From Candidatus Methylomirabilota bacterium (GTDB lineage Bacteria > Methylomirabilota > Methylomirabilia > Rokubacteriales > CSP1-6), in contig DATFUK010000259.1 of assembly GCA_035260865.1 (NCBI GenBank), forward strand, positions 1 through 35,413: DNA of 35,413 nucleotides. Reading direction: 5' to 3'. The notes beneath the pieces were generated by a model. The model was not told where the DNA came from. It searched no databases and saw only the letters and a program-made list of their open reading frames with translations. This document shows, one piece after another, positions 1 through 15,246 of this stretch; position 1 is the first letter of the stretch, and the number at the start of each line of letters is the position of its first letter. The translations under genes were made by a program, and so were the position numbers.

Positions 1-738
1 GAGGCGGCGGCGGATCTGGCCCGCTTCGACGTGGTCGTGCTCGATCCGCACGCCCACCCGCCGCTTCCCCTCGTCAAGCGGCACGGCTCGCTGCTGCTGA
101 CTTACGTGAGCCTGGGCGAGGTGAACACGAGCCATCCCGAGTTCGCCGCCGTCGCGAACGAGCCGTGGGTGCTCTCCGCCAACCCGCGCTGGCCCGATGC
201 GCGCCGCCTCGACGTGCGCGCCCCGGCCTACGAGCGGTGGCTGCTCGACCGGGTGGTGCCGGCCGCGCTGGCCGGTCCGGTGAACGGTCTCTTCCTCGAC
301 ACCGTGGACACCGCGCTCGATCTCGAGCAGACCGATCCACGGCGGTTCGCCGGCGCGGCTCACGCGCTCGAGCGCGTGCTCATGGAGCTCCGGCGCCGTC
401 ACCCGCGGGCGCTCCTGATGATCAACGGCGGCCTCCCCCTCGCGGAGCGGCTGCCGACGGTGCTGGACGCGGTCGCCCTCGAGTCCATCTGGACGGACTA
501 CGACTTCAAGGCCAAGGCCTATCGCGTGCGGCCGGCCGACGAGGCGGAGTCCCGGGCGCTCCTCCTCGCCCGGGTGGTCGCGCTGGGCCTGCCCGTGTTC
601 ACCATCGAGTACGCCGCGGCCGACCGCGGCGCGCCCTGGCCGGCCGAGCTGATCCGTCGCGCCCGCGCCCGCGGATTCGTCCCGTACGTCTCGACGATCG
701 GCCTCGACCAGGTCTCGACCCACACTCTGGCGCGGTGA
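1..738 (+). CDS. pelA: PelA-like glycoside hydrolase (GH114/TM1410-type TIM barrel, alpha-1,4-galactosaminidase-like); 5' end cut by the window edge
   Basis: Frame 1 is open from base 1 (EAAADLARFDVVVLDP...) to TGA 736-738, so the GTG at 31 in the ORF track is probably internal. Motifs DVVVLDP, LTYVSLGEV, GLFLDTVDT, LMINGG and ALESIW fit the (beta/alpha)8 hydrolase family that contains the PelA hydrolase domain. It is the first gene of a pelA-G-ordered cluster. Confidence 0.75.
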   Translation, partial: EAAADLARFDVVVLDPHAHPPLPLVKRHGSLLLTYVSLGEVNTSHPEFAAVANEPWVLSANPRWPDARRLDVRAPAYERWLLDRVVPAALAGPVNGLFLDTVDTALDLEQTDPRRFAGAAHALERVLMELRRRHPRALLMINGGLPLAERLPTVLDAVALESIWTDYDFKAKAYRVRPADEAESRALLLARVVALGLPVFTIEYAAADRGAPWPAELIRRARARGFVPYVSTIGLDQVSTHTLAR

Positions 739-2867
739 CCGCCGTGACCCGACAGCTCTCGCGCCGCGCCCTCCTCGGGGGCTCGGCCGCCGCGGCGGGG
801 GCGCTCGCGCTGGGGGCGGCCGGCCCTCGAGCCCTCGCGGCGCCGGCCGCGCCCGCGGCCGCCCCGGGGGAGCTGTCGCGCTACGTGCTGGCTCTGTACA
901 AGTCCAGCGAGTTCGCCAACGCGGTGGACGGCCGTCGTCCCAAGACCGCCACCCTCAACGAAATTCACAGCTGGGCCCAAATGCCGCTCAACTGGCTCGG
1001 CCTCATGGTCGAGTATCACGACATTGACCGGGGGCTGCCGGACGAGCGGACGATGTCGCGCTACCGCGGCGTCGTCACGTGGTTCCAGACCGAGGACATG
1101 GCCGCGCCGCTCGATTACCTGCACTGGCTGGGCGCGCAGATCCGGGCCGGTCGCCGGGTGGTGATCCTCGAGTACCTGGGCGCGCTGCGCGATCCCCGGA
1201 CCCTGCGGACCGTCGACCTGGCCGCGGCCAACGAGGCGCTGGCGCCGAGCGGGCTCGAGTTCCTGGGCAACTGGACGGGCAACCAGAAGGTGATCGAGCT
1301 CCGCCGCAAGGATCCGAAGATGATGGAGTTCGAGCGGTCGTTCCCGCCCGGCCTGCCCGCCTACCAGCAGGTCCGCGCGCGCCGGGCGGACTCCCGCACG
1401 CATCTCGTGCTGGCCCGGCGCGACCTGCCGGACTCCGAGAGCCAGGTGGTGGTGACCGGTCCGTGGGGCGGCTTCGCGGCGGCCGGGTACGTGCGCTTCC
1501 AGTTCCCGGGGGAATCGGGCGCGCAGTGGTGGCTCGATCCCTTCGCGTTCTTCCGGGAAGCGCTCGGGGTCGGGGACTGGCCGCGGCCGGACACCACCAC
1601 CCAGGGCGGGCGGCGGATCTGCTATTCGCACATCGACGGTGACGGGCTGCGCAACCGCTCGGAGGTCCGCGCGGGCGCGTCGAGCGGCCAGGTCCTGCTC
1701 GAGGAGATCCTCGCGCGCTACGGGCTGCCCACCAGCGTGTCGGTCGTGGTGGCGGAGGTGGAGCCGACGCTGCTCGGGTCGCCCGAGTTCCAGGAGCTGG
1801 CCCGCGCGATCTTCCGGCTGCCGAACGTCGAGGCGGGCAGCCACTCCTATACCCATCCGCTGGACTGGGAGAAGCGGACGCGAAGCTTCACGCTCGCCTC
1901 GATCCCGTACTCGGTGGAGATGGAGACCGCGGGCTCCATCCGGTACATCGAGGAGCGGCTCCTGCCGCCCGGGAAGCGGGTGCGGCTCTTCCAGTGGTCG
2001 GGGTCCACCCGGGTGAGCGAGGAGGCGATCGCGGTCCTCGCGCGGCTCGCGGTGCCCAACATCAACGGCGGCGACACCATGCGCGACCGCGAGTGGCCGA
2101 GCTACACCCGGGTCGCTCCGCTGATGCGGCAGGTGGGCCGGCAGTGGCAGACCTACACCTCCGCCTCCAACGAGAACCTCTACACCAACCTCTGGAGCGG
2201 GCCGTTCTACGGCTACCGCCACGTGGTGGAGACGTTCGAGAACACCGAGAAGCCGCGGCGCGTGGCGCCGGTCAACGTCTACTACCACTTCTACTCGGCC
2301 GAGCGCGTGGCCTCGCTCACCTCGCTGCGCCACGTGCACGACTGGGTCGCGCGGCAGCCGCTCGCGCGCCTCTTCACCAGCGAGTACCTCGCGATCGTGG
2401 CGGGCTTCCGGACCGCGCGCATCGCCCGCGCCGAGCCGGGCTGGCGCGTCTGGGACCACGGCGCGCTGCGCACCGTGCGCTTCGACGACACGCGCGCCGG
2501 GGTGGACCTGGCGCGCTCACGGGGAGTCCTCGGCTTCGTCCATCACCAGGGCGCGCTCTACGTGCACCTGGCGGGGCCCGAGCCCGCGCTGATCGTGCTC
2601 GGCGACCATGCGCCCCAGACCCCCTACCTCGTGCAGGCGAGCCATCGCGTCACCGCCTGGGCCCGCGAGGCCGCGCGCGTCGCGGTGTCGCTCTCGGGGA
2701 TGGGCCCGAAGCTGGTCGAGCTGGCCGGACTGCCCGCGGGTCGCGAGATCGCGGTGGAGATCCGCGACGGCGCCGGATCGCGACGCGAGCGGCCGCGGAC
2801 CGGACCGGACGGACACCTCACGATCCGCGCCGGCGAGGCCGCGGAGGTGGAGGTGCGACTCGGGTGA
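735..2867 (+). CDS. pelA: PelA-like polysaccharide deacetylase (CE4-type) with a twin-arginine signal peptide
   Basis: GTG 735 overlaps the upstream stop (GTGA). The N-terminus TRQLSRRALLGGSAAAAGALALGA looks like a Tat signal. HIDGDG and GSHSYTHP resemble the CE4 Asp and His metal/catalytic motifs. The 710 aa plus the upstream hydrolase roughly equal one full-length PelA. The ORF-track start at 165 lies in an alternate frame inside the previous gene and is rejected. Confidence 0.75.
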   Translation: MTAVTRQLSRRALLGGSAAAAGALALGAAGPRALAAPAAPAAAPGELSRYVLALYKSSEFANAVDGRRPKTATLNEIHSWAQMPLNWLGLMVEYHDIDRGLPDERTMSRYRGVVTWFQTEDMAAPLDYLHWLGAQIRAGRRVVILEYLGALRDPRTLRTVDLAAANEALAPSGLEFLGNWTGNQKVIELRRKDPKMMEFERSFPPGLPAYQQVRARRADSRTHLVLARRDLPDSESQVVVTGPWGGFAAAGYVRFQFPGESGAQWWLDPFAFFREALGVGDWPRPDTTTQGGRRICYSHIDGDGLRNRSEVRAGASSGQVLLEEILARYGLPTSVSVVVAEVEPTLLGSPEFQELARAIFRLPNVEAGSHSYTHPLDWEKRTRSFTLASIPYSVEMETAGSIRYIEERLLPPGKRVRLFQWSGSTRVSEEAIAVLARLAVPNINGGDTMRDREWPSYTRVAPLMRQVGRQWQTYTSASNENLYTNLWSGPFYGYRHVVETFENTEKPRRVAPVNVYYHFYSAERVASLTSLRHVHDWVARQPLARLFTSEYLAIVAGFRTARIARAEPGWRVWDHGALRTVRFDDTRAGVDLARSRGVLGFVHHQGALYVHLAGPEPALIVLGDHAPQTPYLVQASHRVTAWAREAARVAVSLSGMGPKLVELAGLPAGREIAVEIRDGAGSRRERPRTGPDGHLTIRAGEAAEVEVRLG

Positions 2868-5086
2868 AGATCGAGCGCTGGAAGCTTGGGCTCGGGGTGC
2901 TGCTCACCCTCGCGCTCCTCGTGCTGTCGATGCCGTGGGGCGGCGACCTGGGCTGGGCGTACCTGGCCGACCGGCAGTACACGCTGGCCCGGGACATGTT
3001 CACCGACGCGCTGCGCGGCGACACCACCGACGCGCATCTCTGGGTCGGGCTGGCCACCGCCTACGAGGCGCTCGGCGAGCCCGACCGGCAGATCGCGACG
3101 CTCGAGGACGCGGCGCGCAGCCTGCCGCGTCGCCGCGATCTCCTGCTGAGGCTGGCCGACGCGTATCAGGCCAACAAGGACCCCGCCGCGGCGGCCGCGG
3201 TGCTCGAGCGCCTGACCGTGACGCCGGGACCGGACGACGTCCCGCTGCTCGAGCGCCTGCTCACCGCGTACCTGTGGAAGGGCGACTACGAGCGCGAGGT
3301 CGCGGTGCTCCGCAAGCTGGTGGCGCTCAGCCCGACCGACTCCGGGATCGTCGGCGAGCTGGTTACCGCGGCGCGAAGCCTCAACCGGCAGCAGGAGGCC
3401 GCGACGGTGCTGGAAGCGTTCGTGCGGCGGCGCCCCGACGATCCCGAGCGCCGGCGGTGGCTCGCCCAGACCTACGACTCGCTCGGGGAGGGGGATCGCG
3501 CGATCGAGCACTGGAAGGTGCTGGCGCGGATCGCGCCGGGCGACGCCGAGGCCCGCGACCGCCTCCTCCCGGCTCCGGGCGGCGCGCCGCGGGTGGAGGA
3601 GATCGCGCTGCTCGAGCGCCAGCGCGCGGCCGATCCTCGCGACGAGGCCTCGCGCCGCCGGCTGGTGGAGCTCTACCGCGGCGCCGGTGACGGGCCCCGC
3701 GCGGTCGGCGCGCAGCGGGAGCTGGCCGGGCTCCGTCCCCGCGACCACGACACGCTGGCGCTGCTCGGCCGGCTGCTCGTCGAGCAAGACCGCGGCCCCG
3801 AGGCGATCGCCGCGTACGAGCGGGCGGTGGAGATCGCGCCGGACCGGCTCGACAGCGCGCTGGCCCTCGCCCAGCTCTACGAGTGGGGGAACGACCCGCG
3901 CCGCGCGCTGGCCCTGCTCGAGCGCGTGGCGAAGGCGCGCCCCGCGGATCGCGCGCTGCAGGAACGGGTGGCCACGCTCGCCCAGGGCACCGAGGATGGC
4001 GGGTCCGCGCTCGCGGCCCTGGACCGGCTCGCCGCGCTCTCCCCGCCGGACGCCCGTTACGCCCAGCAGGCGGTGGACGCGCTGGCCGCCGCGAATCGTC
4101 TTCCCGAGGCGATCGCGCGGCAGCGGCGAATCGTCGAGCAGAATCCGGGCGCGCCCGGCCCCGCGCTCCGGCTCGCCCAGCTCCACGAGTGGAACAACCA
4201 GGAGCGCGAGGCCATCTCCGTCTACGAGGGGCTCGATCGCGCGAGCGCGTTGCCGGACGCCTCGCTCCGGCGGCTCGCCGAGCTGTATCGCTTCCAGGAT
4301 CGTCCCGCGGACTTCCTGCGGGTGGCCGAGCGCCTGCTCGCCCGGCGTCCGGACGACTGGGCCCTGCGCGACGCGGCCGCTCAGGCCGCCGAGGGGCTCG
4401 GCCGATTCCCGGATTCGGCGCGCCTGATGCAGCCGATGGTGGAGCGGCGGCCTCTCGAGGAGGGCCAGGTGCTCCGGTACCTGAGCCTCACCGCGCAGGC
4501 CGGCCGCCTGGACGACGGGCTCCGCGTGCACCGCCGCTTCGCGGCCTCGGCGAGCCCCGCCTACCGGGCGAAGGCGGGCCGCATCCTGATGGATCTCGGC
4601 AAGTACCCGGACGCGGTCGCGGAGTACGAGGCGGTCCTCGCGGCGGCCCCGGGCGACGGCGACGACGCGGTGGCCGCGCGGCTGGCGCTGGCCCAGCTCT
4701 ACGACTGGACGGGGGCGGGCGAGCCCGCGCTCCGGCAGTGGGAGAGCCTCATGCGCGCGCGCCCGCGGGATCCGCGGGTGCTGCGCGAGGTCGGCCGGCG
4801 CAGCCTCGCGCTGTCGCGCAACGAGGTGGCCCTGCGCGCCTATCGCTCGCTGCTCGACGTGCAGCCCGACGACGCGGAGGCGCTCAAGCGGGCCGGGCAG
4901 CTCATGGCGTGGAGCCACGACGCGCGCGGGGCCCGGACCGCGCTCGAGCGCTTCAATCGCGTGAAGGGCGGCGACTACGAGGTGCACTACCTCCTGGGCG
5001 AGCTCTACGCGGCCGACCGGGATGAGGAGCGCGCGCGCCTCGAGTACGAGCGGGCCCTCCGGCTCCTGCCCGCCCGCCCCCGCTGA
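2864..5086 (+). CDS. pelB: PelB-like membrane-anchored tetratricopeptide-repeat protein (N-terminal part of a split PelB)
   Basis: GTG 2864 overlaps the upstream stop (GTGA). It has one N-terminal hydrophobic helix (LGLGVLLTLALLVLSMPW). About 700 aa of repeated A/L/Y/R-rich TPR-like units follow (e.g. LAQLYEWGNDPRRALALLERV, LAQLHEWNNQEREAISVYEGL, LAQLYDWTGAGEPALRQWESL). It occupies the pelB position in the cluster. Confidence 0.75.
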   Translation: MKIERWKLGLGVLLTLALLVLSMPWGGDLGWAYLADRQYTLARDMFTDALRGDTTDAHLWVGLATAYEALGEPDRQIATLEDAARSLPRRRDLLLRLADAYQANKDPAAAAAVLERLTVTPGPDDVPLLERLLTAYLWKGDYEREVAVLRKLVALSPTDSGIVGELVTAARSLNRQQEAATVLEAFVRRRPDDPERRRWLAQTYDSLGEGDRAIEHWKVLARIAPGDAEARDRLLPAPGGAPRVEEIALLERQRAADPRDEASRRRLVELYRGAGDGPRAVGAQRELAGLRPRDHDTLALLGRLLVEQDRGPEAIAAYERAVEIAPDRLDSALALAQLYEWGNDPRRALALLERVAKARPADRALQERVATLAQGTEDGGSALAALDRLAALSPPDARYAQQAVDALAAANRLPEAIARQRRIVEQNPGAPGPALRLAQLHEWNNQEREAISVYEGLDRASALPDASLRRLAELYRFQDRPADFLRVAERLLARRPDDWALRDAAAQAAEGLGRFPDSARLMQPMVERRPLEEGQVLRYLSLTAQAGRLDDGLRVHRRFAASASPAYRAKAGRILMDLGKYPDAVAEYEAVLAAAPGDGDDAVAARLALAQLYDWTGAGEPALRQWESLMRARPRDPRVLREVGRRSLALSRNEVALRAYRSLLDVQPDDAEALKRAGQLMAWSHDARGARTALERFNRVKGGDYEVHYLLGELYAADRDEERARLEYERALRLLPARPR

Positions 5087-5145
5087 CCTGGGGCGCCGCG
5101 CCCTCCTCCCTTGAACGCGGCGGACGCCGCCGCCATACTCCTTCG

Positions 5146-6585
5146 GTGACCCCGCTTCGCCTCGCGTGTGCCGTCTGGCTCCTGTGCCTGACCCTGGGTG
5201 CCCCGATCACCGTCGCGCGCGCCCAGGCGCCGCCCGAGGCCCCCGCCCCGTTCGAGGCCGAGATGATGCGGGCGCGCATCCTGGCGCGCCTGGGCATGAT
5301 CGAGGAAGCGCTCGCGGCGTATCGCGCGCTGCTCGAGCGCCACGGGGAGGATCGCGCCCTGCGCGAGGACTACGCGGAGCTCCTCGTGGACGCCGGGCAG
5401 CTCGACCAGGCCGGTCCGGTGGTGGATCGCTACCTGGCCGACGATCCCGCCTCCGCGCGGCTGCGCCGGTTGAAGGCCCGGCTCGACCTGGCCCGGGGCG
5501 CGCCCGCCGAGGCGGGCCGTCGCCTCGACGCGCTGGCGCGCGAGCAGCCGCGCGACGCCGGCCTCACCGCGGACCTGGCCGCCGCCGAGCTCGGCGCGGG
5601 CCGGTGGAGCCGGGCGCTCGATCTCTACGGGCGGATGCTGGATGCGGATCCGGAGAACCGCGAGGTCCTGGCCGCCTACCGCGAGATCCTCCTCGCCCAC
5701 GCCCCGCGCGTCGAGCTGATCCACTCCACGCTGCTCCAGACCGCGGCCACGCACCACGTGGAGGAGGCGGCGTGGCGCGGCTGGCTGGCCGACCGCTGGT
5801 GGCTGCGGGCCGGCGCCCGGTACGGCAGCTATCACCAGGACCCGGTGGTGGGCCGGTCCGCGTTCAGCGAGGAGGTGTGGACCGCGCTGGCCACGGTCGG
5901 CTTCCAGCCCACGCGCGCGCTCTCGCTCTGGGCCGGGCTCGAGGAGTCGCGGCGCCGCGAGGACATCTACCGCACCGTCGGGCGCCTCGGCGCCGCCTAC
6001 GACGACGCCAAGGCCACCAGCGCGACGGTGGACGTGGCGATCCGCGAGCTGCTCACCAATCCGGTGGCCGCGATTCCGCGGAACGGATCGACCGACCGGG
6101 TGACGGTGGACGTGGCCCGGCGCGTCCTGGTCCCGGTGGTGCTGGGCGCCCACTACGACTTCCGCCACTACCGCGTGTCCGGCGAGGAGCTGGGCGACCG
6201 CTGGGAGGCGGCGGGGCGGGCCGAGCTCGAGCTGGTGCGGAGCCGCGTGCAGGTGACGCTGATCCCGCAGGTATTTTTTGCCCGGTACACGCCGACCGCG
6301 GGCGATGCCCTGCGCGAGGCGGTCTCGTTCATCAAGCGCGAAGACGTCCTGGGCATCGGGACCGTGGTGGGCTGGGACGTGACGCCCGCGGTGCGCCTGC
6401 AGGCCGGCGCGGTCGGGCGCCGCGACCTGTTCCGCGCGATCACGTCGTGGGAGGTCAACGGGGAGGGCCGGTGGCGAATTCGCCCCTGGCTGGAGGGGCG
6501 CGTGCTCTATACTCGCAACACCGAGTCCACCACGGTGGGCGGCCAGGAAGAATTCTTCCTCGGCCGTCTCGACATCCTGTACTGA
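5146..6585 (+). CDS. pelB: PelB-like secreted TPR plus outer-membrane beta-barrel protein (C-terminal part of a split PelB)
   Basis: GTG 5146 is followed by a Sec-type signal peptide (MTPLRLACAVWLLCLTLGAPITVARA-QA). About 150 aa of TPR-like repeats come next. The last ~290 aa show alternating hydrophobic/polar strand patterns and end in an aromatic residue (GRLDILY), typical of outer-membrane barrels. Confidence 0.7.
   Translation: MTPLRLACAVWLLCLTLGAPITVARAQAPPEAPAPFEAEMMRARILARLGMIEEALAAYRALLERHGEDRALREDYAELLVDAGQLDQAGPVVDRYLADDPASARLRRLKARLDLARGAPAEAGRRLDALAREQPRDAGLTADLAAAELGAGRWSRALDLYGRMLDADPENREVLAAYREILLAHAPRVELIHSTLLQTAATHHVEEAAWRGWLADRWWLRAGARYGSYHQDPVVGRSAFSEEVWTALATVGFQPTRALSLWAGLEESRRREDIYRTVGRLGAAYDDAKATSATVDVAIRELLTNPVAAIPRNGSTDRVTVDVARRVLVPVVLGAHYDFRHYRVSGEELGDRWEAAGRAELELVRSRVQVTLIPQVFFARYTPTAGDALREAVSFIKREDVLGIGTVVGWDVTPAVRLQAGAVGRRDLFRAITSWEVNGEGRWRIRPWLEGRVLYTRNTESTTVGGQEEFFLGRLDILY
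6545..6560. repeat. Perfect 16-nt AT-rich palindrome AGGAAGAATTCTTCCT flanked by GGCC/GGCC, inside the last 40 nt of the porin gene
   Basis: Read directly from the sequence: 6545-6560 is its own reverse complement. GGCC at 6541-6544 and 6562-6565 could extend the stem with one bulged C. It lies 25 nt upstream of the pelC ATG. Confidence 0.6.
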
Positions 6586-7160
6586 TGACACCTACGTCGC
6601 GGCGTTCGAGGATCCTGCTGCTGGCGGCCGCGCTGCTGACCGCGTCCGGATGCGCGAGCGCGGTCCAGGAGTGGGTGAAGCCCGGCGCCGGTCGGGTCGG
6701 CCGCGTCGCGGTGCTCGCCTTCGAGAACCAGACCACCGCGCTGCGGGCCGGACAGGCCACCGCCGATCTCCTCGTCACCGAGCTGCTCGCCACCGGGGTG
6801 ATCGCGGTGATGGACCCGAGCGAGGCCGCCGACCTCCTCCGCCGCGAGAACCTGGACCCCGCCGACGCGGGCCGCCTGCCGTCCGCGCAGCGGATCGGCC
6901 GGCTCCTGCAGGTGAGCCACGTGCTGCAGGGCTCGGTGACCGAGTATCGTTACAAGCCCGGCCTCTCCGAGACGCCCGCGGTCGGCGTCACCGCGCGGCT
7001 CGTGGAGGTCGCCTCGGGGGAGGTGGTGTGGAGCGCGAGCCACGCCCGCCTCGGCTCCTCGTGGATCCGCGAGGACGGGCTCGCGCGCGTCGCGCAGCAG
7101 GTGGCCCACGACATGGCCGCCCATCTGACGGGCGCCCTGGGCGACGCCCGGGCGCGGTAA
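6585..7160 (+). CDS. pelC: PelC-like outer-membrane lipoprotein
   Basis: ATG 6585 overlaps the upstream stop (TGATG). Lipobox LLTASG-C follows a basic/hydrophobic signal peptide. The VAVLAFENQT core is typical of PelC/CsgG-like periplasmic ring lipoproteins. The size (191 aa) and position match pelC. Confidence 0.75.
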   Translation: MTPTSRRSRILLLAAALLTASGCASAVQEWVKPGAGRVGRVAVLAFENQTTALRAGQATADLLVTELLATGVIAVMDPSEAADLLRRENLDPADAGRLPSAQRIGRLLQVSHVLQGSVTEYRYKPGLSETPAVGVTARLVEVASGEVVWSASHARLGSSWIREDGLARVAQQVAHDMAAHLTGALGDARAR

Positions 7161-7167
7161 GCGCCGG

Positions 7168-8520
7168 GTGCTCGCCCGCCTCCGCCGCGGCCACCCCTAC
7201 CTGCTCGAGCTGGGCGGCGGGCTCCTCGTGCTCGCCGTCGTCAACCTGCTGCTGCGGCCAAAGGACCCGGGCTTCCTCGCGGTACAGCCGAACCCGGCCC
7301 TCCTGCTCGTCGCGGTGCTGGCCTGCCGTCACGGCCTGCGCGCCGGACTCGTGAGCGGGCTCGCGACCGCGGCCCTCGTCTCCGGGTGCATCGTGGCGCG
7401 TCTCGAGTACCTGACCTTCACCGAGCTGCGCACGCTCGGGCACTACCTGACGCCGCTCCTCCTGATCGGCACCGGCTTCGGGCTCGGCGCCCAGCGGGAG
7501 GCCCTGCGCCGCGCCGAGCGCGCGCGGGAGAGCCGCGTCGAGGCGCTCGAGCACGAGCTGGCCGACCAGGCGGTGCGCTTCATGGCCGCCACCGAAGCCA
7601 AGCACGAGCTGGAGCGGCGGGTGGCCGACGAGCGCGCGTCGCTCTCGAGCCTCTACACCGCGGCCCGCGCCCTCGAGACGCTCGACGCGGAGCGGCTCTA
7701 CCCGGCGATCGCGCTCACCGCGCGCCGGTTCCTGCAGGCCGACGCCTGCCAGTGCTACGTGCTGGAGGGCGAGCTGATGCGCCTGCGCGCCGCGGAAGGA
7801 CCCGCCCCCGCGCGGTCCGAAATCCCTCCCGACGACGGGCTGGTCGGCCTGGCCGTCCGCCTCGGCCGCCCGGTGAGCGTGCGCGACGCCACCGCCATCG
7901 GCTCCCTCGACGATCTCCACGGGGCGAGCCTGCTGATGGCGGCCCCCCTGCTGGGTCCGCAGGGCACCCTGCTCGGCTGCATCACGGTGACGTCGCTGCC
8001 CTTCCTGCGTCTCACCCCCGCGTCGCTCGATCGCCTCGGCCTGGTCGCGGACTGGGGCGCGCGGGTGCTCGCGAACGCGCGGACCCATCAGGAGACCCGG
8101 GCGCGCACCATCGAGGACGACCTGGTGGGCGCCTACACCTACGCGTACTACGAGCGCCGGCTCCACGAGGAAGAGGTGCGCGCCGACCGCTACGGCCGCC
8201 CGCTCGCGGTGGTCGTCTTCCGCGTCCACCGCTTCGGAGCGGTGGCGCCGGAGCGCCGCATCGAGCTGGGGCGCGTGCTCTCGCTCGTGTTCTCGCGCAC
8301 GCTGCGCGACGTGGACATCGTGTGCCGCTACGCCACCGAGGACTCCTTCGCGATCATCCTGCCCGAGACGCCGCCCGCGCACGCCGAGGTCGTCGTCGAG
8401 CGCCTGTCGCGCGAGATCGGCAACTTCCACTTCGCCCCCTACGCCGACGAGACGGAGGACCTCGAGTTCTCGGCCCGCGTCCTCGCGGTGCGCGAGCGTC
8501 CCGGGGGAGTGACGTCCTGA
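7168..8520 (+). CDS. pelD: PelD-like inner-membrane c-di-GMP receptor (TM helices, coiled coil, GAF, degenerate GGDEF)
   Basis: Hydrophobic N-terminal third, then a coiled-coil linker, then a GAF-like segment (GLVGLAVRLGRPVSVRD ... LLGCITVTSLPF). The C-terminal GGDEF fold reads RDVD-IVCRY-ATEDSF where active cyclases read RxxD-xxxRx-GG(D/E)EF. The I-site RxxD is therefore kept (8305-8316) and the active site is lost (8332-8346). Confidence 0.8.
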   Translation: MLARLRRGHPYLLELGGGLLVLAVVNLLLRPKDPGFLAVQPNPALLLVAVLACRHGLRAGLVSGLATAALVSGCIVARLEYLTFTELRTLGHYLTPLLLIGTGFGLGAQREALRRAERARESRVEALEHELADQAVRFMAATEAKHELERRVADERASLSSLYTAARALETLDAERLYPAIALTARRFLQADACQCYVLEGELMRLRAAEGPAPARSEIPPDDGLVGLAVRLGRPVSVRDATAIGSLDDLHGASLLMAAPLLGPQGTLLGCITVTSLPFLRLTPASLDRLGLVADWGARVLANARTHQETRARTIEDDLVGAYTYAYYERRLHEEEVRADRYGRPLAVVVFRVHRFGAVAPERRIELGRVLSLVFSRTLRDVDIVCRYATEDSFAIILPETPPAHAEVVVERLSREIGNFHFAPYADETEDLEFSARVLAVRERPGGVTS

Positions 8521-9482
8521 TCGCCGCGCTCCCGGCGGGCTGGCTCGCGGAGGCGATCGCGCTCGCGGTCGCGCTCGCGGGTCCCGCGTGGTGGCCCCTG
8601 GCCCTCGCCGTGCACGCGGCCGCGGCCTGGCTCGCCGGCCGCGGGCTGGGGGACGGGCGCCGCGACGCCCGGTTCCTCGCGGGCGCGCTCGTGCTCTCGC
8701 TGCCGGGCCTCGGCCTGGTCGGGCTCAGCGCGATCCGGTTCTGGCGCAGGCGCGCCGCGCCCTCCGGGATCTACGCGGGGGCCCACTCGGAGATGGCGGG
8801 CCTGCCCGGTCCCGGCCAGTCTCCCGAGCCGGTGGACCGCGTCCTCGACTGGCTGCAGGCCCAGGTCTCGGTGCAGCCGGTCGCGGATCTCATCCGCGCC
8901 GCCGACCCGCGCACGCAGCGCTGGGGCGTGGGGCTGCTCGCCAAGCGCGGAGACGGCGCCGCGGTGGAGCTCCTGCGTGAAGCTCTCGGTGCCGATGACC
9001 GCGACACGCAGATCGCGGCCTCCGGCGCGCTGCAGCGGGTGGAGGAGCGGCTGGTGGCGCGGATCGCACAGGCGCAGGAGCAGCTCCGGCTCGATCCGGA
9101 GTCGCCCGAGCGCCTCGTGGCGGTGGGCGACGCGTGCGTGGCCTACCACGAGAGCCGTCTCCTGGAGGCGGCGATGGGCCGCCACTGGCTCGGGGAGGCG
9201 GAAGCCGCCTACCGGGCGGCGCGCGCGCGCCGCCCGGAGTGGCCCGCGCCGGCCGCGGCGCTGGCCCGGGTGCGGCTGGCCCAGGGCGAGGTCGCGGAGG
9301 CGGAGGCGCTGGCCGCGGAGGCGCGCACGGCCGCGCCGTCCACCGAGGCGGACCTGCTCCTCTCGGAGATCTTCTTCGCCCAGGGCCGGTGGGCCGAGCT
9401 GCGGACGCTGTCGCGCGACGCGGTCGCGGCCGGCCGCGCCGACGACACGCTGCGCTGGTGGGCGGGGGAGCCCGCGGCGTGA
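8517..9482 (+). CDS. pelE: PelE-like inner-membrane TPR protein (start codon uncertain)
   Basis: The frame is open from the pelD stop. Two predicted TM helices (WLAEAIALAVALAGPAWWPLALAV and FLAGALVLSLPGLGLVGLSAI) precede a helical-repeat C-terminus, as in PelE. The first canonical start is GTG 8610, which would remove the first helix. CTG 8517 or ATC 8520 abutting the pelD stop would keep it. Confidence 0.6.
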   Translation: MIAALPAGWLAEAIALAVALAGPAWWPLALAVHAAAAWLAGRGLGDGRRDARFLAGALVLSLPGLGLVGLSAIRFWRRRAAPSGIYAGAHSEMAGLPGPGQSPEPVDRVLDWLQAQVSVQPVADLIRAADPRTQRWGVGLLAKRGDGAAVELLREALGADDRDTQIAASGALQRVEERLVARIAQAQEQLRLDPESPERLVAVGDACVAYHESRLLEAAMGRHWLGEAEAAYRAARARRPEWPAPAAALARVRLAQGEVAEAEALAAEARTAAPSTEADLLLSEIFFAQGRWAELRTLSRDAVAAGRADDTLRWWAGEPAA

Positions 9483-10981
9483 CCACCACGACCCCGCCCG
9501 CCGACGTCTGCCTGATCCTGGAGGGCACGTATCCGTACGTGACCGGCGGGGTGTCGGCGTGGATCCACCAGCTCGTCAACGCGCTCCCCGAGCTGCGCTT
9601 CGCGATCTTCCACATCTCGGCGACGAGCGGGGAGGTGCACGAGCCGCGCTACACGCTGCCGCCCAACGTGGTGAGTCTCGTGGACGTGGGCATCCACGGC
9701 GGTGACGAGCCGGCGGGCCAGAGCCACGCGATGGATCCCGCCTCGTGGGAGAAGATCTTCCAGTATCACGAGGAGCTCAAGGACGGCCGTGCCGACGGCC
9801 TCGGCGACCTCCTGAGCCGGATCTCGCCCCACCAGGGCGCCGGTCCGTCGGTCCACGACTACATCTACGGCAAGCCGTCCTGGGACATCGTGCGGCGCCT
9901 CTACGAGGGCCGGGCCTCCCACATCTCGTTCCTCGACTACTTCTGGACGTGGCGCTTCACCCACCTGCCGATATTCCGGCTGCTGCACGCGCCGGTGCCG
10001 GAGGCCGCCCTCTACCACACCGTCTCCACCGGGTGGGCCGGGCTGGTGGCCGCGACCCAGCGGGTCCGCCACGACCGGCCGATGCTGCTCACCGAGCACG
10101 GCATCTACTCGCGCGAGCGGCGCATGGAGATCGACCAGGCGGAGTGGATCTACGTGCAGCGCCAGGCGCCCATGACCCTGTCGGCCGGGCCCGGCTTCTT
10201 CAAGGAGCTGTGGACCCGGCTCTTCGAGCACCTCTCGCGCATCACCTACGCCCACGCCGACCGCATCGTCACGATCTTCGAGGGCAACCGCCAGGCCCAG
10301 ATCCGCGACGGGGCGGACCCGGCCAAGACGCTGGTGGTGCCCAACGGCATCAACATGGAGCCGCTCGCCGCGCTGCCGCGCGTGGAGGCCGCGCCGGGGG
10401 AGTTCCGCATCGGCTTCGTGGGACGCGTGGTCCCGATCAAGGACGTGAAGACGTTCATCCGGGCGGTCAAGATCGTGAGCGCGACGCTGCCGGGCGCGCG
10501 CGCGGTGATCGCGGGGCCCGGCGACGAGGACCCGCAGTACCTCGACGAGTGCCGCGTGCTCGCCGCGACCCTCGGGGTGGCCGAGCGCGTGGAGTTCACC
10601 GGCCGCGTGGACGTCAAGGAGATCTATCCGCGGATCGACGTGCTCGTGCTCACCAGCATCTCGGAGGGGCTGCCGCTGGTGATCCTGGAGGCGGCCGCCG
10701 CCGGCATCCCGGTGGTCTCCACCGACGTGGGCGCGTGCCGCGAGCTCCTCGAGGGCAGCCAGCCCGCGGACCGCGCGCTCGGAGCGAGCGGGCTGGTGAC
10801 CGGCCTCGCCGACCCGGGCTCCACCGCCCAGGCCATCCTGAGCCTGGCCCGAGACCCGGGCCTGCGCGAGGAGATGGGCCGGGCCGCGCGCAACCGGGTG
10901 CGGGCCCACTACCAGGAGTCCGACCTGATCCGTCGCTACCGGGAGATCTACACCGACATGATCGGCCCGCGGGCGCGCTAG
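9479..10981 (+). CDS. pelF: PelF-like family-4 glycosyltransferase
   Basis: GTG 9479 overlaps the upstream stop (GTGA). The N-terminal CLILEGTYPYVTGGVSAWIHQL block is characteristic of PelF-type enzymes. The C-terminal GT-B domain carries the E-x7-E motif (SEGLPLVILEAAAAG). Confidence 0.85.
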   Translation: MTTTTPPADVCLILEGTYPYVTGGVSAWIHQLVNALPELRFAIFHISATSGEVHEPRYTLPPNVVSLVDVGIHGGDEPAGQSHAMDPASWEKIFQYHEELKDGRADGLGDLLSRISPHQGAGPSVHDYIYGKPSWDIVRRLYEGRASHISFLDYFWTWRFTHLPIFRLLHAPVPEAALYHTVSTGWAGLVAATQRVRHDRPMLLTEHGIYSRERRMEIDQAEWIYVQRQAPMTLSAGPGFFKELWTRLFEHLSRITYAHADRIVTIFEGNRQAQIRDGADPAKTLVVPNGINMEPLAALPRVEAAPGEFRIGFVGRVVPIKDVKTFIRAVKIVSATLPGARAVIAGPGDEDPQYLDECRVLAATLGVAERVEFTGRVDVKEIYPRIDVLVLTSISEGLPLVILEAAAAGIPVVSTDVGACRELLEGSQPADRALGASGLVTGLADPGSTAQAILSLARDPGLREEMGRAARNRVRAHYQESDLIRRYREIYTDMIGPRAR

Positions 10982-10985
10982 GGCG

Positions 10986-12401
10986 ATGGCGGGCATCGGC
11001 TTCCGGCTCAAGCGCCTCATCGTCGAGGACAGCAGCAGCGGCTGGCTGCGCGCGCACCTCTACGGCGCGGTCCTCTCGGCGGGCCCGTGGCTGCTCTCGA
11101 TCTGCACGCTCGGCACGCTCGCCCTCTTCTCCCGGGACCTGATCGGCGAGGCCGCGCACGCGCGCTTCCAGGCGATCGTGGTCTACACCTACACGTTCTC
11201 CCTGATCACCACCGGCGCCGCGCACATGGTGGTGACGCGCCAGCTCGCCGACGAGCTCTACGTGGGCCGCATCGGGAGCCTGGTCGTCTCCTACCGATTC
11301 ACGGTGGGATGGACCGCGCTGGCGCACCTCGGGCTCGGCGGCCTGTTCTACGCGCTGGCGCCCGGGCTCGATCCCGCGCTGCGCGTGTTCGGGGTCATGC
11401 TGCTGGTGGTGGTGTCGTGCACCTGGATGGTGATGATCTACCTGGGCGCGGCCCAGGACTACGCGAGCGTGGTGACCGCGTTCTTCGCGGGCAACCTGGT
11501 GAGCCTGCTCGCCGCGCTGGCCCTCGGCCGCTGGCTCGGCACCACCGGACACCTGGGCGGGTTCCTGCTCGGGCAGGCCGGTATCCTCTTCGTGCTCTGC
11601 GCCCGGGTGGAGCGCGAGCTCGCCGCGGTGCGCGTGCCCGAGACGGTGGATCTCACCGGGGCCTTCGTCCGCTACCCGGATCTGATCGCGGCGGGGCTCC
11701 TCTACAACGCGGCCATCGCGGTGGACCGCATCGCGTTCTGGATCGCGCCGACCGGCCGCACCATCGCGGGCTGGTTCCACGCCTCGCTCTACGACACCCC
11801 GATCTTCCTGTGCTACCTTTCGGTGGTGCCGTCGCTCGCCATTTTCCTCGTCAGCGTCGAGACCGACTTCTACGATCGCTACCGGGAGTACTACGGGGTG
11901 GCGACCAAGCACGGCACGCTGCGGCAGGTGCTCGAGGCCAAGCGGGCCATGACCGCGTGCCTGCGCGACGGCCTGCGCCGGGTGATGGTGGTCCAGGGCC
12001 CACTGACCCTGCTCCTGATGGTGCTGGCGCCGTGGATCGCGGCCGAGCTCATGCTCGACGGGCTTCAGCTCGGGATCATGCGCTGCGGCCTCGTGGGCGC
12101 GCTCCTGCACGTGCTGTGTCTGTTCGGGGGCATCGTGCTGCTCTACTTCGACCGGCGGCGGGCGGCCGCCGAGGTCGCGGGCGTCTTCCTGGCCGCCAAC
12201 CTGATCCTGACCGTGATCACGCTGCTGGTGGGCCCGCGCAGCTACGGGCTCGGGTACCCGCTCGCCGCGCTGCTCGGGTGCGCGTGGGCCTACCATCGCC
12301 TCGAGCAGACCCTGGACGATCTGGAGTACCTGACGTTCGCGGCGCAGCCGATGGCGCCCGAGGCGTCGGCCGTCGAGTCGAGCCCGACCGCATCCGCCTG
12401 A
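10986..12401 (+). CDS. pelG: PelG-like polytopic membrane protein (polysaccharide exporter/flippase-like)
   Basis: 471 aa that are hydrophobic throughout, with about 12 predicted helices. The N-terminal GIGFRLKRL and the position after pelF fit PelG. Confidence 0.75.
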   Translation: MAGIGFRLKRLIVEDSSSGWLRAHLYGAVLSAGPWLLSICTLGTLALFSRDLIGEAAHARFQAIVVYTYTFSLITTGAAHMVVTRQLADELYVGRIGSLVVSYRFTVGWTALAHLGLGGLFYALAPGLDPALRVFGVMLLVVVSCTWMVMIYLGAAQDYASVVTAFFAGNLVSLLAALALGRWLGTTGHLGGFLLGQAGILFVLCARVERELAAVRVPETVDLTGAFVRYPDLIAAGLLYNAAIAVDRIAFWIAPTGRTIAGWFHASLYDTPIFLCYLSVVPSLAIFLVSVETDFYDRYREYYGVATKHGTLRQVLEAKRAMTACLRDGLRRVMVVQGPLTLLLMVLAPWIAAELMLDGLQLGIMRCGLVGALLHVLCLFGGIVLLYFDRRRAAAEVAGVFLAANLILTVITLLVGPRSYGLGYPLAALLGCAWAYHRLEQTLDDLEYLTFAAQPMAPEASAVESSPTASA

Positions 12402-14071
12402 TGGCACATCGCTCGGCGGGCGAGGCCACGCTGGTGGCGGCCCTGCTCGCCCTGCTCGCGGCGGTCATCGTCTACCCGCTGCTCCAGGTGCTGTCGGTCG
12501 CGTTTCTCGAGGACGGGGTGCCGACGCTGCGGCCCCTGCTGGCCTTCTTCGCGCGGCCGCTCTTCCGCGAAGCGTTCGGGAACACGCTGCTGGCCGGAGT
12601 GCTGGCGGTGGCGATCGGCACCGTGATCGCGGTGCCGCTGGCCCTGCTCACCGTGCGCTACCGCTTTCCGGGTCGGACCCTGGTCACGGTGCTGGGCGTG
12701 CTCCCGCTCGTGATCCCGCCCTTCGTGGGCGCGGTGGCCTTCCAGCAGATCTTGGGGCGGAGCGGGGCGGTGAACCTGCTGCTGCGCGAGCACGCGGGCT
12801 TCACGATCCCGTTCATGGAGGGGCTGACCGGGGTCGTGCTGGTGCAGAGTCTCCACTACTTCCCGTTCATCCTGCTGAACACCGCGGCCGCGCTGGCCGG
12901 CCTCGACCGCTCGCTCGAGGAGGCGGCCCAGAACCTGGGCAGCTCGGGACTGCGCCTCTTCCGTCGCGTGCTGCTGCCGCTGGCGCTGCCGGGCTACGCG
13001 GCGGGCGCCCTCCTCACGTTCATCCGCGTGATCGACGACCTGGGCACGCCGCTCATGCTGAACTACACCAAGCTGCTGGCGCCGCAGGCCTACGTGCGGG
13101 TCACCACGATCGGCCTCACGGACGTGGACGGCTACGTGATCTGCGTGATCCTGGTGGCGCTGTCGCTCGGCGCCCTCGCCCTTTCCAAGGTGGTCCTGGC
13201 CCGCGGCGAGTTCGCGGCGCTCGGCCGGGGCGGGGACGCGCCGCCGGTGGCGCTGGGCCCGCGCGGGGCGCTGGTGGCATGGGGGCTCGTGGCGCTGCTG
13301 CTGGGGCCGGCCCTGCTCCCGCACGCGGGCATCCTGCTGCTCTCGGTCTCCCGGGTCTGGAGTCTCTCGCCGCTGCCGAGTGTCTACACCCTCGGCAACT
13401 ACGAGGAGATCCTGGTCCGCTCGCCCCAGTTCATCGCCAACACGGTGCGCTACGCGGGGCTCGCCGCGCTGCTCGACGTGGCCCTGGGCGCGGTGATCGC
13501 CTGGCTCCTGCTCCGCGGCCGGGTGCGCGGGCGGCAGTGGCTCGACACGATCTCGACGGTGCCGCTGGCGATTCCCGGCGTGGTGATCGCGGTCGGCTAC
13601 CTGCGCGCCTTCGGGGCCTTCCGCGTGCCCGGCCTGGGCGAGCCGCTCACCTCGACCTGGCTCATCCTGGTGATCGTGTACGCGGTGCGGCGGCTGCCCT
13701 ACGCGGTGCGCGGGGCCTACGCGGCGCTCCAGCAGCTCTCGCCCGCGCTGGAGGAGGCGGCCCAGAACCTCGGGGCCAACCGGGCGCGGACCTTCCGGCG
13801 CATCACGCTGCCGCTGATGATGCGCGGGCTCCTGGCCGGCGGCCTGCTCGCCTTCATCACCTCCGCGGTGGATCTCTCCTCCACGATCTTGCTGGTGCCG
13901 CGGGTCGAGCTGGGGCCGCTCTCCTACGGCATCTACCTCTACATGCAGTCGGCGGTGGGCCGCGGCCCCGGGGCGGCGCTCGGGGTCGTCGCCATCGTGC
14001 TGGTGGCGGCCGGGACCTGGGCCGCCACCGCGCTGGCGCGGCGCTCCGGGGCCGCGCTCTTCCGGAGCTGA
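12401..14071 (+). CDS. ABC transporter permease with two fused transmembrane domains (FbpB/ThiP-like)
   Basis: ATG 12401 shares its A with the pelG stop (TGATG). There are two copies of the EAA loop signature: EEAAQNLGSSGLRLFRRVLLPLALPG and EEAAQNLGANRARTFRRITLPLMMRG. The protein is 556 aa. Confidence 0.85.
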   Translation: MAHRSAGEATLVAALLALLAAVIVYPLLQVLSVAFLEDGVPTLRPLLAFFARPLFREAFGNTLLAGVLAVAIGTVIAVPLALLTVRYRFPGRTLVTVLGVLPLVIPPFVGAVAFQQILGRSGAVNLLLREHAGFTIPFMEGLTGVVLVQSLHYFPFILLNTAAALAGLDRSLEEAAQNLGSSGLRLFRRVLLPLALPGYAAGALLTFIRVIDDLGTPLMLNYTKLLAPQAYVRVTTIGLTDVDGYVICVILVALSLGALALSKVVLARGEFAALGRGGDAPPVALGPRGALVAWGLVALLLGPALLPHAGILLLSVSRVWSLSPLPSVYTLGNYEEILVRSPQFIANTVRYAGLAALLDVALGAVIAWLLLRGRVRGRQWLDTISTVPLAIPGVVIAVGYLRAFGAFRVPGLGEPLTSTWLILVIVYAVRRLPYAVRGAYAALQQLSPALEEAAQNLGANRARTFRRITLPLMMRGLLAGGLLAFITSAVDLSSTILLVPRVELGPLSYGIYLYMQSAVGRGPGAALGVVAIVLVAAGTWAATALARRSGAALFRS

Positions 14072-14073
14072 CG

Positions 14074-15246
14074 ATGGCGCCGCGCGTCCGGACCGAGTGG
14101 GTGCTGCCGGCCTCGATGCTGCTCGGGACCTTCGCGTGGTCGTTCGTCTACGTGAGCCTGCCGTTCCACATCCAGAAGATGTCGACGCTGGACCCGGGGG
14201 CGACCCTGCGCTGGACCGGCTGGATCCTCGGCATCAGCCCACTGATCACCGTGATCACCGCGCCGATCTCCGGACGCATCGGCGAGCACATCGATCCCAA
14301 GCGCGGCTTCATCGCGGTGCAGGCCTTCCAGGGGCTGGGCTTCCTCGGGATGGCGCTCGCGCGCACGCTGCCCGAGATGCTCGTGGCCCGCGTGCTCCTG
14401 GGGCTGATGGGCGCGGTGTCCACGTTCGCGTTCATCATGGTGGGACGCTCCGGCGGCGACGTGCGGCGCCAGGTCTCCTACATCCAGTCGGGCATGACCC
14501 TGGGGCAGGTGCTGGGACCCGCGGTGGGGGCGGTGGTGGCGGCGCGGCTCGGGTTCCGGCTGTCCTTCATCCTGGGCGGCGTCATGCTGTGGGCCTGCTC
14601 GGCTCTCGTGGCCTGGGGCGTGCCGCCCGGCAAGCCGCGCGACGCCAAGGCCGCGGGCGACCGGCGCACGCCGCCGCGGGAGCTGATCACCGCGTGCCTG
14701 GTCGTGCTCACCGGCTCGACCCAGATCTTCTTCCTGGCCGCGATCCTCCCGCAGATCCTCCCGCGGCTGGGCGTGTCGGGGGACTCCACGCTCGAGGTCA
14801 GCGGCTTTCTCCTTCTGATCACCGGGCTGGCCGCCGCGCTCGGCGCGATGGCCGCCCCGCGCCTCGCCGAGGTCGTCGGCGACCGGCGCGCGTTGATCTG
14901 GTTCCTCCTGGGCTCCTCGGTGCTGGTAGCCGGGCTCGGGGTCGCGGGCAACGTGTGGAGCTTCGGGGCGCTGCGCTTCCTGCAGGTGCTGTGTATCGCG
15001 CCGATCTTTCCGCTCTCGGTGGCCGCGATCGCGCAGCGGGCGTCCGGGGAAGCCATCGGATTCGTCAACTCGGCGCGGATCGGGGCGGCCTTCATCGGGC
15101 CGGTCGTGGCGACGACGCTGCTGTCGTCGATGCCGCCCGCCGCCGTCTACCTGGTGCTGGCCGGCATGGGGCTGTCGGTGATCCCGCTCGTTGCGCGGCT
15201 CAATCGCCGCGCGCGGCCGTGGGACGAGGGAGGGGCGAGGGCGTGA
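14074..15246 (+). CDS. Major facilitator superfamily transporter
   Basis: ATG 14074 lies 2 nt after the permease stop. The 390 aa contain about 12 hydrophobic segments split by a charged central loop (PPGKPRDAKAAGDRRTPPRE). An MFS-like loop motif GRIGEHIDPKRG follows TM2. Confidence 0.8.
   Translation: MAPRVRTEWVLPASMLLGTFAWSFVYVSLPFHIQKMSTLDPGATLRWTGWILGISPLITVITAPISGRIGEHIDPKRGFIAVQAFQGLGFLGMALARTLPEMLVARVLLGLMGAVSTFAFIMVGRSGGDVRRQVSYIQSGMTLGQVLGPAVGAVVAARLGFRLSFILGGVMLWACSALVAWGVPPGKPRDAKAAGDRRTPPRELITACLVVLTGSTQIFFLAAILPQILPRLGVSGDSTLEVSGFLLLITGLAAALGAMAAPRLAEVVGDRRALIWFLLGSSVLVAGLGVAGNVWSFGALRFLQVLCIAPIFPLSVAAIAQRASGEAIGFVNSARIGAAFIGPVVATTLLSSMPPAAVYLVLAGMGLSVIPLVARLNRRARPWDEGGARA

Follow-up and report, generated by a model that had tools for sequence, protein, structure and literature searches.

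A probable Pel-type exopolysaccharide locus from Methylomirabilota with PelA and PelB each distributed over two proteins

In Pseudomonas aeruginosa, the Pel exopolysaccharide system is encoded by the genes pelABCDEFG, and its two large components are single polypeptides, PelA of 948 amino acids (aa) and PelB of 1193 aa. PelB consists of an inner-membrane helix (residues 1-36), TPR1-19 (residues 69-726), an alpha-rich region of ten helices (residues 727-910) and a barrel (residues 876-1193) (PMC12022489, section 9), and in models of the P. aeruginosa system this one polypeptide spans the periplasm from the inner-membrane helix to the outer-membrane barrel. Here we describe a locus in which the corresponding modules of PelA and PelB lie on four separate proteins. 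It occupies positions 1-12401 of a 35,413-nucleotide (nt) stretch of DNA, which we call the window, from an uncultured soil organism, a Candidatus Methylomirabilota ('Rokubacteria') bacterium (assembly GCA_035260865.1, contig DATFUK010000259.1). The locus is very probably a genuine Pel-type, synthase-dependent exopolysaccharide locus whose two large components are each made as two polypeptides.

Published work provides several partial parallels to this arrangement. A PelB construct of residues 762-1193 behind a heterologous cleavable signal peptide reaches the outer membrane, where it drives assembly of the PelC ring (Benedens et al., PMC12141448, PDB 9h80), and a barrel-only PelB construct does not bind PelC; these authors also make the case that full-length PelB may form a bridge between the two membranes (PMC12141448). 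In Gram-positive pel loci, a deacetylase-only PelA_DA and a PelA_H are encoded by separate genes (Whitfield et al., PMC7112168) and there is no PelB or PelC, while the stand-alone hydrolase of Bacillus cereus is active and modulates biofilm (PMC7112168, PMC13254593). The legend of Fig 5 iii in Bundalovic-Torma et al. 2020 (PMC7112194) names a 'pelB fission' operon clade of 'aquatic thermophilic species'.

The window has a GC content of about 73%, which yields long open reading frames (ORFs) in every frame and fills mechanical ORF lists with spurious entries. We picked coding frames with a third-position GC (GC3) frame plot, which showed one coding frame at any place, always on the + strand. 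These gene calls, together with the identity searches, bear out the nine-gene content and order given in a preliminary description of this DNA, whose starts at 7168, 8517 and 10986 are those of g6, g7 and g9 as called here. The nine genes are listed with their predicted identities.

g1, 1-738, + strand: PelA_H, a stand-alone hydrolase, open at base 1
g2, 735-2867, + strand: PelA_DA, a PelA without the hydrolase domain; GTG start, 4 nt overlap with the g1 stop
g3, 2864-5086, + strand: N-terminal part of PelB, an inner-membrane helix and TPR scaffold, 740 aa
g4, 5146-6585, + strand: C-terminal part of PelB, a Sec signal, nine helices and a 16-strand barrel as modelled, 479 aa
g5, 6585-7160, + strand: PelC, an outer-membrane lipoprotein; ATG start, sharing 1 nt with the g4 stop
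g6, 7168-8520, + strand: PelD-like protein with transmembrane (TM) region, coiled coil, GAF and degenerate GGDEF domains, 450 aa
g7, 8517-9482, + strand: PelE, N-terminal TM helices and a HEAT/TPR-like cytoplasmic domain; start uncertain
g8, 9479-10981, + strand: PelF, a GT4 glycosyltransferase (DUF3492 and GT1)
g9, 10986-12401, + strand: PelG, a polytopic inner-membrane protein

From g1 to g9, the junctions measure -4, -4, +59, -1, +7, -4, -4 and +4 nt, and the earlier statement that every junction overlaps or is at most 59 nt is true provided that g7 begins at 8517 (CTG). Compared with pelABCDEFG of P. aeruginosa, the locus has the same functions in the same order, through PelG, and shares both PelA catalytic sites, the RxxD motif of the I-site and a 16-strand barrel after a helical region. 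It differs in the distribution of PelA and PelB over two genes each, in a highly divergent PelD-like protein and, in this lineage, in the kinase-STAS gene that precedes it and the transporter genes that follow.

Family profiles identify the g8 and g9 products unambiguously as PelF and PelG. The g8 product matches the NF038011 PelF equivalog over positions 1-489 of 489 (E 7e-152, 507 bits against a cutoff of 100) and PF11997 (E 4e-81); the g9 product, which has multiple hydrophobic segments, matches PF16933 PelG over positions 1-451 of 452 (E 1e-117, 394 bits against a cutoff of 29). With these two matches, the Pel-type assignment of the preliminary description is upheld, and the product of the gene at 10986 is clearly a PelG. 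In phmmer searches, the g5 product matches PelC of P. aeruginosa (9h80_C, E 5e-17) and of Paraburkholderia (5t11, E 3e-15; 5t11/5t10 at about 1e-15), and it also matches the Pfam CsgG and LpoB folds. It carries the lipobox ..TASG/C and is the predicted PelC outer-membrane lipoprotein. A diderm host, as had been proposed, is supported by this lipoprotein, by the 16-strand porin of g4 and by relatives that belong to Methylomirabilota.

The two active sites of PelA are found on two proteins. The g1 product matches PF03537 (E 4e-14) and the structure of the PelA hydrolase domain (5tcb, E 1e-23), aligns to chain residues 16-249 of full-length PelA (9cgy) and retains the catalytic glutamate of PelA (E218 in P. 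aeruginosa) as E161, in the motif ALESI. These matches assign it as an endo-alpha-1,4-N-acetylgalactosaminidase-like hydrolase, the equivalent of the PelA_H domain. There is no g1 start in the window; by comparison with full-length orthologues (293 aa in locus L021), about 45-48 codons, including the signal peptide, lie outside. Full-length orthologues have 289-293 aa, the N-terminus VGLTRRLL... and a signal peptide, which in relatives reads VGLTRRLLAAALALGLGG....

The g2 product has no match in Pfam or NCBIfam scans, and phmmer aligns its residues 84-659 to chain residues 282-856 of PelA (9cgy, E 3e-83). It comprises mixed alpha/beta, CE21 deacetylase and beta-rich domains and keeps the active-site motifs H299-I-D301-G-D303, H370-S-Y-T-H374 and Y-Y-H518; the catalytic residues of P. 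aeruginosa PelA are H526/D528/D530, H600/H604 and H761 (PMC12022489). CE4 had been named for comparison in the preliminary description, but the deacetylase is of the PelA type, whose esterase domain is now classed CE21 (PMC12022489). The protein opens with its own twin-arginine (Tat)-type signal, SRRALLGG...ALA/AP. Judged by sequence, both PelA active sites are intact, the hydrolase on g1 (about 290 aa) and the deacetylase on g2 (710 aa), and the predicted activities are spread over two polypeptides. A homologue search with g2 found 98 proteins, about 90 of which have 650-776 aa and no GH114 domain (PF03537); these span 97% to 34% identity and come mostly from Methylomirabilota/'Rokubacteria', with some from Alphaproteobacteria. 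Fused proteins (925-969 aa, with PF03537) account for only 4 of the 98, all at 41% identity or less.

The features of PelB, a TPR scaffold and a C-terminal 16-strand porin, are supplied jointly by g3 and g4. The g3 product matches 18 TPR-type Pfam families (best E 8e-34) and has a hydrophobic N-terminal helix at residues 3-27, a layout that parallels residues 1-726 of P. aeruginosa PelB (inner-membrane helix and TPR1-19; map from PMC12022489, section 9). Relatives carry the same 740-aa gene. The g4 product begins with a cleavable-looking Sec signal peptide (..TVARA/QAPP) and ends in ...DILY. Its AlphaFold2 model, built with 41 homologues (pLDDT 89.7), predicts nine helices at residues 36-184 and then a 16-strand beta-barrel at residues 188-478. 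When this model was compared with the PDB by Foldseek, the best match was PelB in the PelBC complex (9h80_M, E 5e-19, TM-score 0.65 on the target), with BcsC and PgaA ranked after it. We found 83 homologues of g4, none of them fused; the full-length ones have 429-522 aa and shorter ones are fragments.

Both break points fall on module boundaries that experiments have defined in PelA and PelB of P. aeruginosa. The g1/g2 boundary parts the hydrolase, which as an isolated domain does not bind PelB (Van Loon et al., PMC12022489), exactly from the rest of PelA, and TPRs 9-19 of P. aeruginosa PelB bind exactly the PelA domains that are found in g2 (PMC12022489). At the second boundary, g3 (740 aa, inner-membrane anchored) maps to PelB residues 1-726 and g4 (479 aa with its own cleavable signal, about 450 aa when mature) maps to residues ~727-1193. 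The engineered PelB(762-1193) is like g4 in having a cleavable Sec signal, helical repeats with a stalk and a 16-strand barrel, but it is an artificial cut of a continuous PelB that retains about three TPRs, whereas g4 is a natural, conserved gene with nine helices. The preliminary description had called the locus a natural dissection of the machinery. This idea is reasonable and is sharpened by the coincidence of both break points with functional module boundaries, although the word 'split' presumes an evolutionary direction.

Close counterparts outside the lineage are on plasmids of Azospirillum thermophilum CFH 70021 (NZ_CP029356.1) and A. lipoferum 4B (NC_016585.1); the A. thermophilum locus came to light when the plasmid collection was searched with PelF. 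Both have the same nine-gene order, with PelA and PelB as two genes each. Seven of the nine proteins (g1, g2 and g5-g9) align end to end with their Azospirillum counterparts (E 3e-5 to 1e-112), and the second TPR protein of Azospirillum also has its own signal peptide. The Azospirillum loci differ in belonging to Alphaproteobacteria, in a PelF identity of 36-41%, in a longer first TPR protein (992-1018 aa) and in having no kinase-STAS or ABC/MFS neighbours. Within the set of papers that was searched, none on pel in Azospirillum or Methylomirabilota was found.

Other described pel loci resemble the present one in part. The 'pelB fission' clade shows that PelB comes from more than one gene in some environmental pel operons; the mention stands in a figure legend, which draws no link to a PelA split (PMC7112194). 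The pelDEA(DA)FG locus of B. cereus likewise has a separate deacetylase and a separate alpha-1,4-N-acetylgalactosaminidase (PMC7112168, PMC13254593). Its PelA_DA is a membrane-anchored CE26 enzyme with about 20% identity to the CE21 domain of P. aeruginosa PelA (PMC13254593), whereas the g2 product is a true CE21 PelA that lacks the hydrolase domain only; the separation in B. cereus is analogous to g1/g2 and is not the same split. The novelty implied by a nine-gene layout is reduced by the 'pelB fission' legend (PMC7112194), by the stand-alone PelA hydrolases (PMC7112168) and by the Azospirillum twins. The locus is a variant architecture of a well-known system, with partial published precedents and an unremarked Azospirillum twin, and is no new type of machinery.

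Distant pel architectures were sampled through the plasmid collection, as a PelF scan of genome contigs returned close relatives and four unrelated GT4 loci (L017-L020). Burkholderia and Azonexus plasmids carry the canonical seven pel genes, and Rhodobacterales pel loci have a stand-alone hydrolase and a Wza-like exporter. On plasmids of Cereibacter azotoformans (L024) and Sulfitobacter (L025), pelF-pelG occur with a stand-alone polygalactosaminidase, galE, joined in Cereibacter by glmS, and a Wza-like 'polysaccharide biosynthesis/export family protein'; the annotation of these two loci, which is incomplete for plasmid records, lists no PelB/PelC-like gene. Such loci may represent another diderm solution to Pel export. 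In an alphaproteobacterial metagenome-assembled genome (MAG) locus, L003, we do not claim a PelB split, as the second TPR protein (579 aa) matches the g4 profile in its helical part only. Public annotation hides the pel loci of B. thailandensis and A. thermophilum: on the B. thailandensis plasmid NZ_CP013412.1, the canonical 914-aa PelA (L022, 1259-4003) bears the label 'sugar ABC transporter', while PelC and PelE are each labelled 'hypothetical protein', and in A. thermophilum the PelA_DA, PelD-like and PelE genes are annotated as 'hypothetical' or 'GAF domain-containing'.

The gene boundaries are conserved among relatives, and the encoding of PelA and PelB as two proteins each, as first described for the window, is confirmed there and in its relatives. 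The window's PelG had no exact match in the assembly collection, but at 50-97% identity both splits are seen again in six or more short-read assemblies. The g1/g2 and g3/g4 boundaries are kept in short-read MAG loci (L008, L011-L014), in a JGI contig (L021) and in a 59%-identity clade (L002). Every clean relative has a g1 signal peptide, a g2 twin-arginine motif (SRRALLG), a g3 TM helix and a g4 Sec signal peptide. Independent JGI gene calls give sizes of 289-293, 700-710, 740, 486-500, 188-191, 449-450, 292-319, 496-499 and 471-472 aa for g1 to g9. A single bifunctional PelA and a single TM-TPR-porin PelB are not present, and the Pel system has a non-canonical architecture.

Two alternative accounts of these boundaries have very different standing. 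It is exceedingly improbable that they are frameshift artefacts of sequencing or assembly, or the remains of a pseudogenised seven-gene operon. Scattered frameshifts do occur inside the pel genes of long-read MAG loci (L001, L007, L009, L016), and the g3/g4 boundary itself shows a frame change and an ORF overlap zone (5026-5086). However, the long-read frameshifts differ in position from locus to locus and are assembly errors unconnected with the conserved boundaries, which stand at identical positions in six short-read assemblies and two finished Azospirillum replicons. The downstream halves open with their own export signals (the g2 Tat motif and the g4 Sec signal), which is unexpected for a frameshifted internal segment, and the g3-g4 spacer, at -4 to +59 nt among relatives, behaves as a true intergenic region. 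On the strength of the conserved boundaries and the separate signals, we rejected frameshifting as the cause of the splits. By comparison, the possibility that the two-gene states are ancestral, that the canonical proteins of Beta- and Gammaproteobacteria arose by later fusion and that nothing is split here is a serious one, to which we give somewhat less than an even chance. In its favour, stand-alone GH114/GH166-type hydrolases lie near pel in a broad but patchy range of organisms (Gram-positives (PMC7112168), Rhodobacterales, Azospirillum, an alphaproteobacterial MAG with a different gene order, and Methylomirabilota), and an analogous hydrolase-deacetylase fusion is inferred for Gram-negative PgaB in the discussion of Bundalovic-Torma et al. 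(PMC7112194). Yet full-length PelA is reported from 16 phyla (PMC12022489, section 8), the PelB case is named 'fission' in the Bundalovic-Torma et al. legend (PMC7112194), and the nearest fused relative of g2 (P0072, 41% identity) and the split forms of Alphaproteobacteria are equally close to g2. Fission and fusion alike would fit the patchy occurrence of stand-alone hydrolases in several phyla.

Public records of the relatives show two further irregularities. Gene calls are fragmented on the long-read MAG contigs (MFD and ERZ25039565 assemblies; L001, L007, L009, L016), where PelG is called at 356 aa and PelD at 312 aa, for example. Rokubacterial pel contigs at 84-94% identity (L008, L012, L014, P0224) are filed in MAGs labelled Acidoferrum, Nitrosotalea (an archaeon), Limnocylindria and Bathyarchaeia, probably through binning contamination.

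The g7 product has 2-3 N-terminal hydrophobic segments and weak HEAT/TPR matches, and an exhaustive HMMER search with it found 273 relatives, mostly of 320-360 aa with end-to-end alignments. The cluster names of distant relatives ('HEAT repeat', 'hypothetical') are uninformative, and single-sequence phmmer searches with g3, g4 and g7 against the PDB returned generic TPR or HEAT matches only. There is no curated model for PelE, an inner-membrane protein of about 330 aa that has N-terminal TM helices and a TPR-like domain and whose gene lies between pelD and pelF; we built a profile from g7 and 106 relatives. It matches the protein at the PelE position of the canonical B. thailandensis pel operon through both its TM and C-terminal parts (E 1e-26) and the corresponding Azospirillum protein (E 8e-48), compared with values of only about 1e-8 for unrelated TPR proteins. 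By this profile, the product of the gene at 8517 belongs to the PelE family, as the preliminary description had supposed.

The start of g7 is likely non-canonical, at or beside 8517. The codon at 8517 is CTG, an alternative ATC follows at 8520, and the g7 frame contains no ATG, GTG or TTG from the g6 stop to the GTG at 8610. This placement is supported by a strong Shine-Dalgarno sequence, GGGGGAG, at 8503-8509, ideally spaced at 7 nt ahead of 8517, by the peptide encoded between 8517 and 8610, a TM helix conserved in L008 and L014, and by canonical starts at the equivalent place in the more distant L011-L013. The same holds for L008 and L014, which have no canonical g7 start there either.

The identity of g6 is the weakest in the locus. 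Its product is predicted to be PelD-like in function and is probably orthologous to PelD. It contains about four TM helices, a long coiled coil, a GAF domain (Pfam E 2e-7) and a GGDEF domain (Pfam E 1e-4) with the degenerate motif ATEDSF, which predicts a receptor rather than a cyclase. The I-site is intact (R380-D-V-D383), with R380 and D383 invariant in 31 family members. An hhalign comparison with an annotated Burkholderia PelD gave 354 co-linear columns that start in the TM region, reach the end of the protein and keep the two RxxD motifs in register (E 5e-5, probability 67%). Neither single-sequence nor profile searches with g6 gave a convincing match to PelD, and the co-linear match came from hhalign only. 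As for similarity of the 7168 product to PelD, which the preliminary description had assumed, the PelD architecture and the co-linear alignment were found, and the match is weak.

Several observations weigh against reading the locus as a Pel system, and a number of them concern g6. No PelD-specific family was matched by g6 in Pfam/NCBIfam scans. Searched against the PDB, its family profile matches the GGDEF domains of ordinary diguanylate cyclases (6zxm, E 3e-14) better than PelD, whose match is confined to the GAF domain (E 2e-3), and hmmsearch with that profile did not retrieve Burkholderia PelD. In Foldseek searches with the predicted structure (pLDDT 80.5), the top match is a GAF-GGDEF cyclase, Dcsbis, with PelD (4dmz/4etx/4dn0) at ranks 4-14 (E ~4e-9). 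These results would agree with a membrane GAF-GGDEF protein that was recruited independently of PelD, as a former cyclase turned receptor or in another regulatory role, which we consider unlikely. The g6 gene lies between PelC and PelE as PelD does, its product is of similar size (450 aa against 455-466 aa) and shares the order of TM region, coiled coil, GAF and degenerate GGDEF domain with PelD, the RxxD motif is invariant while GG(D/E)EF has been lost, the hhalign match is co-linear throughout, and several family members are annotated as PelD by JGI. Elsewhere in the locus, the link of g3 to PelB consists of TPR content, an N-terminal helix, size and position. The hhalign comparison of the g4 family with Burkholderia PelB was not significant (probability 8%); we dropped that alignment as evidence, as it covered TPR-like helices only and was off register. 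Apart from the TPRs, no homology to PelB emerged at the sequence level. There is no canonical g7 start codon where the tight junction requires one, and the window has no UDP-GlcNAc 4-epimerase gene (PelX/GalE), of which more distant relatives have one beside pel. The organism is known from metagenomes only, and expression of the locus and a polymer of N-acetylgalactosamine (GalNAc) are predictions from its genes.

The preliminary description had called the locus complete, which does not hold: g1 is cut at the window edge, and a conserved upstream gene lies outside. In relatives, this gene encodes a fusion of an RsbW-like kinase (HATPase_c_2) and a STAS domain (261-269 aa), and it ends about 10 nt inside the g1 start. 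The overlap was found in all nine close relatives that reach far enough (L001, L007, L009, L011-L014, L016, L021); in L021, the gene lies at 8323-9132. About 8 kb further upstream of the kinase-STAS gene there is a response-regulator-PP2C (SpoIIE) gene, and these neighbours suggest partner-switching control of pel in the lineage. In the 59%-identity clade (L002), the place of the fusion is taken by separate genes for a kinase, a STAS protein, an NAD-epimerase (GalE/PelX-like) and another STAS protein.

Downstream, the chain of closely spaced genes continues beyond pelG with three genes:

g10, 12401-14071, + strand: fused double ABC permease, -1 nt from pelG
g11, 14074-15246, + strand: MFS transporter, +2 nt from g10
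g12, 15243-16346, + strand: ABC ATPase with a TOBE domain, -4 nt from g11

The first real gap after pel, of 149 nt, is at 16346. A promoter/terminator scan found no terminator-like site between pelG and g10 and no promoter-like site; it placed one terminator-like site inside pelG, and this count is no higher than chance, which leaves the scan uninformative on operon limits. There is no gene for a substrate-binding protein near g10-g12. The earlier description of the nine genes as one operon keeps its support in the tight spacing of g1-g9, but the limits are uncertain at both ends, as the tight chain runs on to 16346. It is rather improbable, though conceivable, that the unit and perhaps the system exceed nine genes, extending from kinase-STAS through g10-g12 with transporters that aid Pel, for example in precursor or metal supply. 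The close junctions from pelG to g12 without a terminator-like site, the overlap of kinase-STAS with the g1 start, and the adjacency of pelG and the transporters in some ten close relatives (L007-L013, L015, L016, L021) speak for such a unit. On the other hand, g10 is missing in L014, the transporters are not next to pel in L002 or Azospirillum, no Pel role is known for fused-permease/TOBE ABC importers or for MFS proteins, and a shared transcript does not imply a shared function. Since the adjacency is confined to the close clade, we regard g10-g12 as probably co-transcribed neighbours and not as Pel components.

With respect to protein contacts, product chemistry and regulation, we infer the following scheme for the nine-gene Pel system. 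Sugar polymerisation at the inner membrane would be the task of PelF (g8), acting with PelG (g9), PelE (g7) and the PelD-like g6 product, and binding of cyclic di-GMP (c-di-GMP) at the RxxD I-site of g6 is predicted to switch the synthase on. In the periplasm, the CE21 deacetylase g2, exported through Tat, would dock on the TPR scaffold g3, itself anchored in the inner membrane, and g2 would partially deacetylate the polymer, and the separately secreted hydrolase g1 would trim or regulate it. Export would proceed through the Sec- and BAM-targeted g4 protein (residues ~727-1193 of P. aeruginosa PelB), capped by the PelC (g5) lipoprotein ring. As g3 and g4 are separate proteins, a bridge between the membranes cannot be covalent here; the covalent PelB bridge would be replaced by two proteins with a non-covalent association, if any. 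The PelA_H and CE21 active sites and the orthology of PelF point to a cationic, partially de-N-acetylated alpha-1,4-GalNAc polymer as the likely product.

We tentatively propose, while considering it less likely than not, that Pel export in this lineage and Azospirillum operates without a covalent PelB bridge, that a TPR scaffold and Tat-exported deacetylase hand the polymer to a free-standing porin-PelC complex, and that kinase-STAS adds partner-switching on top of c-di-GMP control. If this is true, Pel export does not require the trans-envelope continuity proposed for P. aeruginosa PelB, and the PelA-PelB and PelB-PelC modules can be separated. As a natural test, the locus could show which covalent links are needed, both inside PelA and along the PelB scaffold. 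Unlike the uncultured Rokubacteria, A. lipoferum 4B and A. thermophilum are cultured, which makes genetics feasible. The locus would also extend the capacity for Pel biofilms to Methylomirabilota, an abundant soil phylum.

The remainder of the window (1-35413) brings its total to about 31 genes, all on the + strand. After pel and the transporters come genes for rhodanese, enoyl-CoA hydratase, HAD hydrolase, phosphoribosyltransferase, 3-hydroxyacyl-CoA dehydrogenase and acyl-CoA dehydrogenase, and further downstream those for a Liv-type ABC transporter, GntR, ETF beta and alpha and a second acyl-CoA dehydrogenase. The gene at 26043-31163, whose stop overlaps the start of trpD (31160-32233), encodes a hybrid histidine kinase of 1706 aa in which six or more GAF domains are followed by HisKA, HATPase_c and receiver domains.

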